Source: an uncultured Bacteroidales bacterium
Lineage (GTDB): Bacteria > Bacteroidota > Bacteroidia > Bacteroidales > UBA932
Length of the DNA stretch: 64,000 bases
NCBI GenBank assembly: GCA_944326265.1
Contig: CALVDE010000005.1
Coordinates: 28,729-92,728, forward strand
Reading direction: 5' to 3'
A program made the position numbers and the translations under genes. Below the pieces are notes generated by a model. The model was not told the origin of the DNA, did no database searches, and worked only from the letters and a program-made list of their open reading frames with translations. Below are positions 52,208-55,353 of the stretch, piece by piece (positions within the stretch are counted from its first letter, which is position 1; each line of letters opens with the position of its first letter).

Positions 52208-52363
52208 AATTCGGTAAATTTTTATTGTTAATCGATATGCAAATATAGTAATTTTATCGAAAAACAATAAATTATCTGAAATTTTCTTGATGTTAAGTCT
52301 TTTTGCTGTCACAGAGCGCAATCTGTATATGCGGTGCGGACCCTCGCGGTTTTTGAACGCGTA

Positions 52364-52401
52364 TATTTTTGCGGTAAAAGTTTTACTTTTGCGGTAAAAG
52401 T
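52364..52401 (+). promoter_or_regulatory. Tandem duplicated promoter element: TTTTGCGGTAAAAGT x2 (20-nt period), each carrying a TAnnTTTG box
   Basis: TATTTTTG at 52364-52371 and TACTTTTG at 52384-52391. The 15-nt perfect direct repeat occupies 52367-52381 and 52387-52401, just upstream of the ATG at 52412. Confidence 0.5.
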
Positions 52402-52411
52402 ATCCACAATC

Positions 52412-53779
52412 ATGGCAAGAAGACTTCTCACTATCCTTCTTCTGAGCACGGCTGCAATGCTGGCATCTCAGGCGCAGAATGCTGACGGGCGTATCGGGAC
52501 GTGCATGAACGAAGGCCGTTGGTTCGACCTGGCACACGAGCTGAATGTTACTCCGGCGGATTCCGTCAACCCTATTTTGTATAAGATGGCTGTGGCAATG
52601 ACGCACCATTATTTCAACCGCCCTGACTCGGCGTGCACCGTGCTGGGAGATCTGCTGAACAATCATCAGGAGGAGTTGGGCGACAATACTTTAAGCATGG
52701 CGGTGCTGATGGGACTGAACCTGGCGCGTACCGACCGCTATGCTGAAGCGGCAGAGCTGATGCAGAGCCTGTGCGGCCAGCTGGAAGCAATGGGTGCGGA
52801 CAGTACGCAGACCGCAGGGCTGAGTATCATGGAGCGGCAGTACCGCGTTTTTGCCGAAAACGGCCCTGTCTGCCGGCCTCTGCATCCCGCAGGCACTTAC
52901 CGCGTTTCGATGAAGATTGATAATGCGATGCATACGGTCAGGGATAAAGCGTCCGAAGGGCATTTTATAGCAATGGACGGGCGCATCAACGGGAGGAAAA
53001 GTTCTCTGGTATTCGATACCGGTGCCGGTGTCAACATCATATCTTCCAGACAGGCATACGCAAGCGGCTTGCGTCTTCTGGATGCAGTCATACCGATGGC
53101 GGGGGTCGGTATGCAGCATGGACATCTTGCAATGGCGGATACGCTGCGTATTGGTGACATGGTGTGGGCCAATGTCCCGTTCCTTATCGTAGACATCCGG
53201 ACGGGTAATGCGGAAGCGGACAGTACTGGTGTGCTGTTGCCTCCGGTCATCGGTCTGCCTCTCATGCTCCGTATGCGGGAAGTACAGCTGGATTTTGAGC
53301 ACCGCCAGTTCATCATTCCGGCCGTGCCTTCTTCAAATCCGCTGGGAGAGAGCAATATGCTGAGGACGGACAGTGAGGGCCTGCACGTGGCTGCTGCAGA
53401 CGGAGACGGGCGGCCTCTGTATCTGCATTTTGATACAGGTGGATACGGGACAACGCTTCTTCCGCATTGGTACCTGCAGCACAGGGAGGAGGTTATGGCT
53501 GCGGGAACATCGGATTCCCTGAGGGTTGCCGGTGTGGGCGGTGTCAACATTACCCGCGCTTACCGTCTGCCGTATAAGGAGTTTTGCATAGGAAACGGTG
53601 AGGTTGTCCTCGATTCGGTGACAGTGGATACAGGAGTCGGCTTGCATACAGGCGGTGAGGAAAGTCCTCAGTACCTGGGAGGAGAAGAGGACGGTACTTT
53701 GGGGCTGGACCTTCTGGAGCAATTCAGGACGGTGATACTGAACTTGGAGGAAATGTATCTGAACGGGATACCGTATTAG
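52412..53779 (+). CDS. Secreted retropepsin-like aspartyl protease family protein (two DTG-type lobes)
   Basis: Signal peptide MARRLLTILLLSTAAMLASQAQ, then LVFDTGAGVNIIS and LHFDTGGYGTTLL. Confidence 0.7.
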   Translation: MARRLLTILLLSTAAMLASQAQNADGRIGTCMNEGRWFDLAHELNVTPADSVNPILYKMAVAMTHHYFNRPDSACTVLGDLLNNHQEELGDNTLSMAVLMGLNLARTDRYAEAAELMQSLCGQLEAMGADSTQTAGLSIMERQYRVFAENGPVCRPLHPAGTYRVSMKIDNAMHTVRDKASEGHFIAMDGRINGRKSSLVFDTGAGVNIISSRQAYASGLRLLDAVIPMAGVGMQHGHLAMADTLRIGDMVWANVPFLIVDIRTGNAEADSTGVLLPPVIGLPLMLRMREVQLDFEHRQFIIPAVPSSNPLGESNMLRTDSEGLHVAAADGDGRPLYLHFDTGGYGTTLLPHWYLQHREEVMAAGTSDSLRVAGVGGVNITRAYRLPYKEFCIGNGEVVLDSVTVDTGVGLHTGGEESPQYLGGEEDGTLGLDLLEQFRTVILNLEEMYLNGIPY

Positions 53780-53890
53780 CTCGATAGCAGGCAATGCAGG
53801 CCAATCTTCACGTTGCTTTTTAGTTGTAACGGATGTGGCTAAAAATTAAGATGTTGGCAAAATCACAGAATTTCAAATGCGGCTAAAATC

Positions 53891-54232
53891 AGTCTGTTTT
53901 GTAAAAATTTGCATAAGTAACTGTTGTGTAGACGCTTATCTGAATGACTCCTGAACAGACTCAAGGGAGAAACGAAGTCGTGCTTAAGCTGACCCGCACT
54001 CACAGGCCTTTATTGGCAGGTATTGAAAGGTCTTTGCGTCTATGCACCTCTGAGTCTGTTTTGACCTGTTTGAGATAACATGTTGTAGTTTGGTGAATTA
54101 TACTGGGTACTGGCGTTACAGATTGGTGACAGGTCTCCCTCAATCTGTTTTTGTCAGTTTGATGTAAATTATCGTAGTTGAGGATATTGTACTCGGTGTG
54201 GTATTACAGACTGGAGATGAAAAGTGGCAGAG
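53891..54232. repeat. Three related ~75-90 nt units, each bounded by AGTCTGTT...ACAGACT-type inverted termini, in an ORF-free region
   Basis: The units are at ~53891-53965, 54053-54141 and 54142-54232. The last two are adjacent and about two-thirds identical in a hand alignment. Confidence 0.6.
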
Positions 54233-54467
54233 CACTTTTGCTGCAGAAATGTGTATGAGAACTTCAACATTCATTTATGTCATGTAAATTTTAATGTCTG
54301 ACGGGAAAGCAAGCTATACGTGAAGAATGCGTGCAAAAGGTCCGAAGTTCACCTTCGGAAGGTGAGCAGGCGGATATTCCGCAGATTTTCGTAAATTTTC
54401 GTAAATTTGCCCAAGTGCTTGTAGCAGACATTATTTCGAGTTACTGATATTATGACCTGAGCAAAAT

Positions 54468-54953
54468 ATGAAATCGTTACGCAAGATATTCAACATCGTG
54501 TCGGCGGCTGTGCTGCTGACCTCTTTCTATCCGCTGTTGTTATGGAACAGGCTGGAAGGTGTGCGGATACCTACCCGTTTCGGTCTAGACGGGACGCCCG
54601 ACCGCTGGGGAAACATGACATCGCTGCTGATTCTCTGCGTTATAGCCACGGCTGCGTATGTGTTCTTCATGGCGTGTCAGCGTGCTCCGCAATTGATGAA
54701 CACGTTGGAGCCGGAGCCGGCGAAGATTACCCCTGGGGTCAGTTCCGCAGTGAAGGACTTTATCTCGCACCTGTGCCTTGTCTGCATGCTGCTTCATTCG
54801 TCCATTTCCAATTCCGGACTGGCGGTAGCTCTCGGAAAGGCGCAGGCCATGCCGTCCTGGATTTACGCAGTGCTCCTTGCTCTAATCGTGATAGCGGCAA
54901 TCGTTCTGACTGTCCGTGTGATCGTGGCGGTGGCTGCTCAACGAAGAGGGTAA
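54468..54953 (+). CDS. DUF1648-like membrane protein
   Basis: IPTRFGLDGTPDRWGN after the first TM helix is the DUF1648/SdpI-N-like motif as I recall it. The protein has four TM helices. Confidence 0.6.
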   Translation: MKSLRKIFNIVSAAVLLTSFYPLLLWNRLEGVRIPTRFGLDGTPDRWGNMTSLLILCVIATAAYVFFMACQRAPQLMNTLEPEPAKITPGVSSAVKDFISHLCLVCMLLHSSISNSGLAVALGKAQAMPSWIYAVLLALIVIAAIVLTVRVIVAVAAQRRG

Positions 54954-55037
54954 CGATCTCGGGCAAATGTGTGAGGGGTTGTTGGTGGGAATCGGAAAGG
55001 CCGTATTAGCAGAATAGTTGTGTACATGTGCTAAAAT

Positions 55038-55332
55038 CATCCCACCTTCTGAAGGTGTGCATAAAATCCCGAGAATCGTCTCGCCTTCGGAAGGTGGAAA
55101 ATAGTGAAATAGTCTGGGAACGGCATTATACGTGCTGTGGCTGTGCCGTTGCTCAATCCCACCTTCTGAAGGTGTGCAGAAAACCCCGAGAATCGTCTCA
55201 GCTTCGGAAGGTGGTAAAAGGTGAGAATGTCTGGGAACGGCATTATACGTGCTGTGGCTGTGCCGTTGCTCAATCCCACCTTCAGAAGGTGTGCAGAAAA
55301 CCCTGTGAATCGTCTCACCTTCGGAAGGTGGG
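55038..55332. repeat. 117-bp tandem repeat, ~2.5 copies, each with two CACCTTC-N-GAAGGTG palindromes plus an AACGGCA/TGCCGTT hairpin
   Basis: The CCCACC unit starts are at 55041, 55158 and 55275, giving an exact 117-nt period. Confidence 0.9.
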
Positions 55333-55353
55333 ACAGCGGGAGAGGAGGCAGGC

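Follow-up and report, generated by a model that had tools for sequence, protein, structure and literature searches.

A gene-free region of an uncultured Bacteroidales genome as a probable mosaic of genus-specific repeat families, with a possible link to RAYT-like enzymes

What occupies the gene-free region at positions 53780–54467 of the 64-kb window (the whole stretch of DNA analysed here), and what are the stem-bounded units repeated within it? The region lies between an aspartyl-protease gene (52334–53779; Pfam Asp_protease_2) and a DUF1648 gene (54468–54953). As the original prediction had stated, it contains no ORF of 60 aa or more, the longest internal ORFs being 44–47 aa. That prediction had proposed a structured ncRNA array, an iteron-like region, or decayed MITEs. 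We compared the region with the rest of the genome that carries the window (G000, whose contigs are given as C-numbers) and with its relatives (other G-numbers) in the genus Ca. Coprenecus / 'Alistipes sp. CAG:831'. The region is very probably a mosaic of dispersed, genus-specific repeat families, and the locus is a repeatedly rearranged spot, not the site of a locus-specific RNA and not an origin. With less assurance, we favor the fuller explanation in which a three-family repeat mosaic linked to RAYT-like enzymes, together with the promoter of the DUF1648 gene, accounts for the whole region.

The window contains three TCTGT-N57–59-ACAGA units, all on the + strand and within this region. They are the sole matches in the 64 kb, against a mean of 0.16 and never three in shuffled sequences, bearing out the earlier description of three stem-bounded units. 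Unit U2 (R0 in the original prediction; 53893–53959, 67 nt) is followed by a 95-nt L spacer (53960–54054) that starts with ACAGACTC..GGAGAAA, a start typical of the TCTGT family, and carries the family motifs GGAGAAAC and CACAGG, which are common to the subfamilies. Unit U3 (R1; 54055–54122, 68 nt), which has orthologous units in G013, G006, and G010, is joined by the S spacer, a short 21-nt junction between units (54123–54143), to unit U4 (R2; 54144–54210, 67 nt), which is also present in G013. The non-coding stretch 3′ of the array (54211–54323) is common only to the closest relatives, G013, G006, and G041. The 12-mer T(C/G)A(G/A)TCTGTTTT is common to the units and present three times. The TTACAGAYTGG end ascribed to each unit does not hold for R0, which ends in AACAGACTCA. 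The predicted 10-bp inverted pair, AACAGACTCA and TGAGTCTGTT, also exists; it consists of one unit's 3′ foot together with the 5′ foot of its successor. The feet of all units are mutually complementary, every foot pairing with every other, and no special stem surrounds the spacer. R1 and R2 are 68% identical, in keeping with the predicted two-thirds, but their 50 identical positions are not above those of interior shuffles with the 11-nt termini fixed (mean, 46; maximum, 53). The identity between R0 and R1 is also at the chance level.

A search for copies, which the original prediction had proposed, revealed homologous copies in G000 and across the genus. The dispersed repeat is a three-module element of ~320 nt, U1-S-U2-L-U3 (U-S-U-L-U), not a single unit. 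When the locus on contig C6 was used as the query, genus-wide BLAST matches repeatedly spanned exactly query positions 334–657 (~323 nt) with 69–89% identity. The element has sharp ends, CAGTCTGT at one and ACAGACTG at the other, and the flanks of non-orthologous copies are unrelated. Among 41 elements, U measured 67–69 nt, L 92–96 nt, and S 20–21 nt in 40 of the 41 (once 17 nt); unit start-to-start spacing alternated between 161 and 89 nt in every array, with units of 67–69 nt throughout. Paralogous elements are barely alignable in sequence, yet they are collinear in length. In orthologous elements, 0.039 gap events per substitution were counted versus 0.187 in their 100-nt flanks, in a comparison where the orthologous pairs are non-independent and some flanks are repetitive in their own right. 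In the window copy the order is U2-L-U3-S-U4: it lacks the first module and has an extra one at its end. This U4 is an additional module from a 250-nt periodic extension of the array, and such extensions were also found in G010 and G013. At loci L117–L125, several elements are preceded by runs of imperfect 8–9-nt repeats (cagccaca / cagtcatg / cagccata), and several are trailed by a shared gcggtgcggtaaag sequence, which suggests that these elements are embedded in larger composite repeats.

The element is restricted to the genus. The two-unit pattern TCTGTN{57,59}ACAGAN{15,24}GTCTGTT matched 19 of the 26 other genomes of the genus (1–13 matches per genome; none in seven), and the same pattern matched nine of 374 genomes from the family's other genera versus five for a reversed-pattern control, which is the chance level. 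In an exact-pattern scan of 185,579 species (one genome each), true matches were confined to Candidatus Coprenecus, 'Alistipes sp. CAG:831', and uncultured Bacteroidales bins, and a BLAST search of a phage collection gave zero matches. G000 itself has two further arrays (C3:21929–22247 and C6:66435–66753), revealed by the looser unit pattern; clusters of GTCTGTTT, found in G000 at this locus only, proved too strict a marker. Relatives carry an array upstream of the DUF1648 gene, with the number and order of units varying. Copies occupy orthologous loci in several species, and neither recent movement nor near-identical copies were seen. At a second orthologous locus, in other Coprenecus species (L042, L046, L048, L050, L054, and L062), 117-nt-type repeats are followed directly by a U-S-U-L-U element, with an XRE-type or fumarate hydratase gene on one side and a MATE efflux or IF-2 gene on the other.

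The left part of the region derives from a second family, an inverted-repeat-bounded (IR) element of ~185 nt with 19–24-nt inverted ends, TCACGTTGCTTTTTAGTTG and its inverse, of which G000 has eight complete copies. The window retains the left half (53802–53892, + strand), including the left terminal repeat TCACGTTGCTTTTTAGTTG (53807–53825, + strand); the right half is lost. The remnant aligns to C14:126635–126721 with 72% identity. The three GGC(T)AAAAT direct repeats noted earlier are indeed present and represent the interior of this element. An iteron-like region is therefore not supported, since the GGCTAAAAT repeats belong to a genome-wide 185-nt element and no replication gene was seen among the flanking genes, the neighbors being the aspartyl-protease and DUF1648 genes. 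Six other copies of a closely related IR subfamily lie on C1, C5, C10, C17, C18, and C19, three of them within ~1.2 kb of tRNA genes and two near contig starts. We also considered the IR element as an invertible promoter: no TAnnTTTG box was seen inside it by reading, and the six main-family copies all have the same orientation relative to conserved flanks. This idea was dropped because a reading as a RAYT-flanking repeat, described below, was preferred.

Comparison with relatives showed how the locus differs between species. G041 and G017 retain a complete IR element at the same position, behind the protease gene. G041 reads ...ggctaaaatcagtTGTTTTGGG... and then, ~415 nt farther downstream, ...tttcagtCTGTTTTGTG..., whereas the window and G003 read ...ggctaaaatcagtCTGTTTTGT..., the right half of the IR element and the sequence beyond it (~415 nt in G041) being missing. 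The break falls in the microhomology cagt(c)tgtttt, common to the U2 foot, and the resulting deletion junction in the window (53886–53900, + strand) joins the IR-element interior to that foot. In G017 (L012, G017:C8), the alpha/beta-hydrolase remnant that lies at ~55350 in the window comes immediately after the protease gene and the complete IR element. Arrays, DUF1648 gene, and 117-nt repeats together therefore make up a 1.45-kb presence/absence difference (window ~53890–55350) that is bounded by repeat elements. Thus, G017 is without ~1.45 kb, G041 is ~400 nt longer, and the number of units is variable.

The right part of the region (54324–54467, + strand; query positions 545–688), which ends at the ATG at 54468, is kept at 81–87% identity in every relative having the DUF1648 gene. 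It comprises a partial 117-nt-family repeat, CCGAAGttcaCCTTCGG (~54340–54375), the predicted TTTTCGTAAAT ×2 tandem, which is present at 54386–54407, and a 5′ UTR. The octamer TAAATTTG at 54402–54409 matches TAnnTTTG, reportedly the established Bacteroides −7 consensus, and lies 58 nt before the start codon; we take it to be the Bacteroidota −7 promoter box of the DUF1648 gene. The tandem duplicates this box. The earlier statement that none of the repeats is explained by the flanking gene ends is thus wrong for the tandem, and the last ~140 nt are, to judge from their sequence, an ordinary promoter of the DUF1648 gene. Behind the DUF1648 gene (55038–55332) are 117-nt tandem repeats that combine CACCTTC..GAAGGTG with an AACGGCA-N18-TGCCGTT hairpin and belong to genome-wide families. 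Repeats of these families also occur elsewhere in G000 (C1:57034–69000, C4:123889–124342, and C17:79944–81441), and arrays of these repeat families bracket two RAYT-like genes, at C1:58407–59345 and C17:80241–81164.

Searching with Pfam Y1_Tnp, we detected weak matches in ORFs mostly of ~280–415 aa, one to six per genome, in 23 of the 27 genus genomes. In an alignment of 12 of these paralogues (~290–360 aa), H52 and H54 of the HUH motif and the motif Y-x-x-R-N-P-x-x-H (Y107/R110/N111/P112/H115) are invariant. Their sole NCBIfam match is NF047646 (REP-associated tyrosine transposase), with 28–44 bits against a cut-off of 80; scores under this equivalog cut-off indicate that the paralogues would be distant RAYT relatives only. 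A profile of the paralogues found E. coli TnpA-REP (4ER8) as its best PDB match (E = 0.008), and only the profile reached it; a single-sequence phmmer search of the PDB with one paralogue, RAYT-C, gave zero matches.

Three RAYT-like paralogues of G000 sit between inverted copies of dispersed repeats. A gene encoding a 316-aa protein (C14:125558–126508, − strand) lies between IR elements at 125200–125380 and 126639–126818, while the genes at C1:58407–59345 and C17:80241–81164 are bracketed by 117-nt repeats and by 105-nt hairpin repeats, respectively. All three kinds of bracketing repeat have copies elsewhere in G000, and the window IR remnant matches the flank of one bracketed paralogue (C5:82531–82617). 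By coordinate comparison, a 318-aa paralogue is bracketed by the IR motif in G017, G020, and G023 as well. As a RAYT-like (IS200/HUH Y1-type) gene of G000 lies between complete copies of the IR element, we read this element as a REPIN/TIR-type repeat, which is probably cognate to that gene. The C14 protein has the HUH motif 'THCHI' and the Tyr motif 'SYILRNPVHHG'. Three more RAYT-like paralogues, with 20–36% identity to the query proteins, were detected in G000 by tblastn; those at C12:13616–14416 and C17:51760–52575 lack dispersed repeats within 700 nt on either side, and the one at the C17 end (143954–144763) adjoins sequence repeated at many contig ends.

The TCTGT family has a neighbor of the same kind in relatives. 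RAYT-C was matched once in each of 10 genomes, in every case beside the same pfkB kinase gene, and its upstream intergenic region contains two to four TCTGT units in G020, G023, G018, G004, G014, G041, G009, and G022. A second TCTGT array lies beyond the neighboring kinase gene; otherwise the units are found upstream of RAYT-C only. This adjacency concerns one orthologous locus and counts as one evolutionary observation. BLAST found no other copy of the array flanking RAYT-C in G023, G020, G018, or G041, and several TCTGT elements persist in genomes without RAYT-C, such as G013 and the complete genome G024. RAYT-C is absent from G000 too, where the best match has 31–36% identity to other paralogues. 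The G010 orthologue of RAYT-C (64% identical) is flanked not by TCTGT units but by different repeats, GTTCAGAT..ATCTGAAC, which may be a co-diverged cognate repeat; at this locus (L151, G010:C27), several short GTTCAGAT-N(20–25)-ATCTGAAC hairpins precede the gene. Together, these observations weakly support RAYT-C as a candidate partner of the TCTGT family. Whether the enzyme is RAYT-C or another paralogue, recognition of the TCTGT element by a RAYT-like protein appears to us almost, if not quite, an even call.

The persistence of copies at orthologous loci across species, RAYT-C-less genomes included, is also what would be expected of host-maintained architectural or regulatory DNA sites. On this explanation, the feet CAGTCTGT/ACAGACTG, six invariant 8-mers per element, would bind, as has been proposed for E. 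coli BIMEs, a nucleoid-associated protein, gyrase, or an IHF-like factor, and the element would owe its retention to chromosome organisation or to effects on transcript ends instead of to transposition. It agrees with feet that are invariant rather than covarying and with spacing kept within 1–2 nt despite heavy divergence, indels being ~5 times rarer per substitution than in the flanks. However, no candidate binding protein was identified, and the copy number is low and very uneven (0–13 per genome, with seven genus genomes devoid of copies), which is odd for a housekeeping function. The same evidence is compatible with the RAYT explanation, as the RAYT itself could be the binder. We consider host-maintained sites, in either the architectural form or the form concerned with transcript ends, an unlikely account of the element.

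Constant length combined with low sequence identity is also typical of structured RNAs, and the ~320-nt elements or their 67–69-nt hairpins could represent an ncRNA family acting as an sRNA, a processing substrate, or a stabiliser of mRNA ends. In line with this, some U2 modules are strong hairpins (z of −3 to −4.7) with G:U pairs on the + strand, and three U2 stem positions show changes on both sides (columns 100/156, 102/154, and 103/153). Nevertheless, the single units of the window had folding z values of −1.6 to +0.4, most units fold no better than shuffles, and the mean z of 44 units was only about −0.7 on both strands (−0.70 on the + strand vs −0.62 on the − strand), a strand preference not beyond composition. 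RNAalifold paired only the interchangeable feet. In 23 non-redundant elements, the 5–6-bp stem cores are invariant and the adjacent extension positions are mostly unpaired; a shuffle test of the foot extensions was not significant. The covariation score of 0.082 exceeded that of shuffles (0.051; 0/500 reached 0.082), but a control slid by +1 scored 0.094, making the result unconvincing, and the 'G:U-compatible changes' reported between R1 and R2 do not amount to covariation. An Rfam cmscan of 53000–55200 with E up to 10 returned three chance-level matches, none on the units, and ARAGORN, run on 53000–55000 since each unit has the size of a tRNA and a closing stem of 7 bp, found no tRNA. No promoter or terminator associated with the units was found, and arrays occur in either orientation relative to neighboring genes. 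These results favor motifs at fixed distances, that is, protein recognition, over a conserved RNA fold, and we regard the structured ncRNA array put forward originally as improbable.

Coding and other array-type explanations were likewise considered. The 44-aa ORF at 53944–54078 has no Pfam match, and its frame is not kept in relatives. An 85-aa ORF is open across six family-2 arrays from six species, but variable columns were distributed over the codon positions as 26/33/32 and thus have no third-position excess; this ORF is apt to be miscalled as a gene in MAG annotations. Integron attC sites, a CRISPR-like array, type III antitoxin repeats, and CTnDOT core sites were set aside for wrong spacing, the lack of cassettes or cas genes, and non-identical repeats.

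Among the three original proposals, decayed MITEs came closest, in that the region does contain dispersed, genus-specific, sharp-ended repeats. Classical MITEs would be deletion derivatives of a DDE-type IS with CAGTCTGT terminal inverted repeats, inserted repeatedly side by side, and the terminal inverted repeats CAGTCTGT...ACAGACTG and the intergenic location suit this view. On the other hand, no target-site duplication was found at any offset (0–5) or length (2–8) in 23 TCTGT elements, none of the loci read was seen to contain an autonomous partner bearing these ends, and what is dispersed is the whole three-module element of ~320 nt with fixed geometry, not a single TIR pair; the likely partners are RAYT-like. 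A clean empty site for the C6 array was not found either, the relatives sharing the left flank only. Classical MITEs are therefore very unlikely. Functionless, immobile debris from local tandem duplication of junk DNA in a recombination hot spot, although it would suit a locus that is rearranged between species and arrays that differ in unit number, is hardly credible and is contradicted by the dispersal of the same architecture, with conserved feet and lengths, over many unlinked loci and species and by the constraint on its geometry.

Under the RAYT-linked mosaic explanation, rearrangements between three interspersed non-coding repeat families would have left the mosaic now seen, and the window copy of the TCTGT element would have lost its first module through the microhomology deletion while carrying one extra module. 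A RAYT-like HUH enzyme might recognize the six conserved feet and their fixed spacing on single-stranded DNA, as TnpA-REP does REPs; we infer both the action of such an enzyme on the TCTGT family and its action on hairpins in single-stranded DNA. The TCTGT elements would be old, vertically inherited, and essentially immobile now in G000, a genome without the paralogue found beside such units in relatives. A broader and more tentative reading is that the genus harbors four or more enzyme–repeat pairs side by side, each made up of a long-form (~316 aa) RAYT-like HUH enzyme and an unusual repeat of its own. The repeats would be the 185-nt IR doublet, tandem hairpin repeats of 105 and 117 nt, and the three-module TCTGT element of ~320 nt. 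The TCTGT element would then be a new architectural class of REPIN-like element whose geometry has been under selection since before the species of the genus arose; we see this as possible, though doubtful.

If the link holds, several REP/RAYT-type systems coexist in an uncultured gut Bacteroidales genus, and neither their enzymes nor their repeats have a familiar form. Rigid geometry with little sequence conservation points to recognition of shape or to a multi-site complex, which would widen the known substrate range of HUH enzymes and would be tractable with synthetic oligonucleotides and recombinant protein. In MAGs of this group, such repeats also account for contig breaks, for spurious ORF calls, and for local indels, here the 1.45-kb difference in which the DUF1648 gene lies.

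Among known systems, the REP/BIME/REPIN-RAYT ones of Proteobacteria, such as E. coli TnpA-REP (4ER8) and the REPINs of P. fluorescens (PMC3116915), come nearest. In the cited literature, work on REP/REPIN-RAYT systems has mainly concerned Proteobacteria, where they are treated as a model of 'replicators' that persist for long and are inherited vertically. As in those systems, a single-copy HUH Y1 gene is bracketed here, in the case of the IR element and the tandem-repeat families, by inverted copies of a dispersed extragenic repeat, inheritance is vertical without target duplication, and several putative enzyme–repeat pairs occur per genome; inverted motif pairs at a fixed distance, in clusters with alternating short and long linkers, are further features shared with REPs and BIMEs. 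Unlike RAYTs, however, the proteins described here, at ~316 aa, carry a long C-terminal extension, and on the RAYT model they reach only 28–44 bits against a cut-off of 80. Whereas classical REPs are 20–40-nt palindromes with a GTAG tag, present in tens to hundreds of copies, the TCTGT element has 67–69-nt modules and 8-nt feet, no GTAG/CGTC tag, and 1–13 copies per genome.

Related arrangements have been described outside this core. RAYT-class genes of TnpA-Y1 subclass 2.6 in Bacteroidetes are bordered by secondary structures of unusual type, of which copies occur at other genomic sites (Quentin et al. 2018, PMC6006769). Compared by size and motif, the subclass 2.6 proteins have ~179 aa with NH[LIV]H and YIH[QN]NP (PMC6006769), whereas those found here have ~316 aa with S[NT]HxH and Y[IV]xRNPxHH. 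RAYT genes flanked by long terminal inverted repeats that are unrelated to GTAG REPs and form moderately abundant families have also been reported (Di Nocera et al. 2013, PMC3733652). The 185-nt IR element resembles these TIR families but differs in taxa and sequences and in that its IR pair forms a compact 185-nt doublet. Compared by architecture, not sequence, the TCTGT element shares with pneumococcal BOX, Neisseria Correia, and enterobacterial ERIC elements a short, non-coding, intergenic, modular or palindromic, and genus-restricted character, but it differs from them in that zero target duplication was found and in a far more rigid module geometry. Together, these comparisons place the proteins and repeats of this genus nearest to REP/BIME/REPIN-RAYT systems, and their forms differ enough to count as a new variant.
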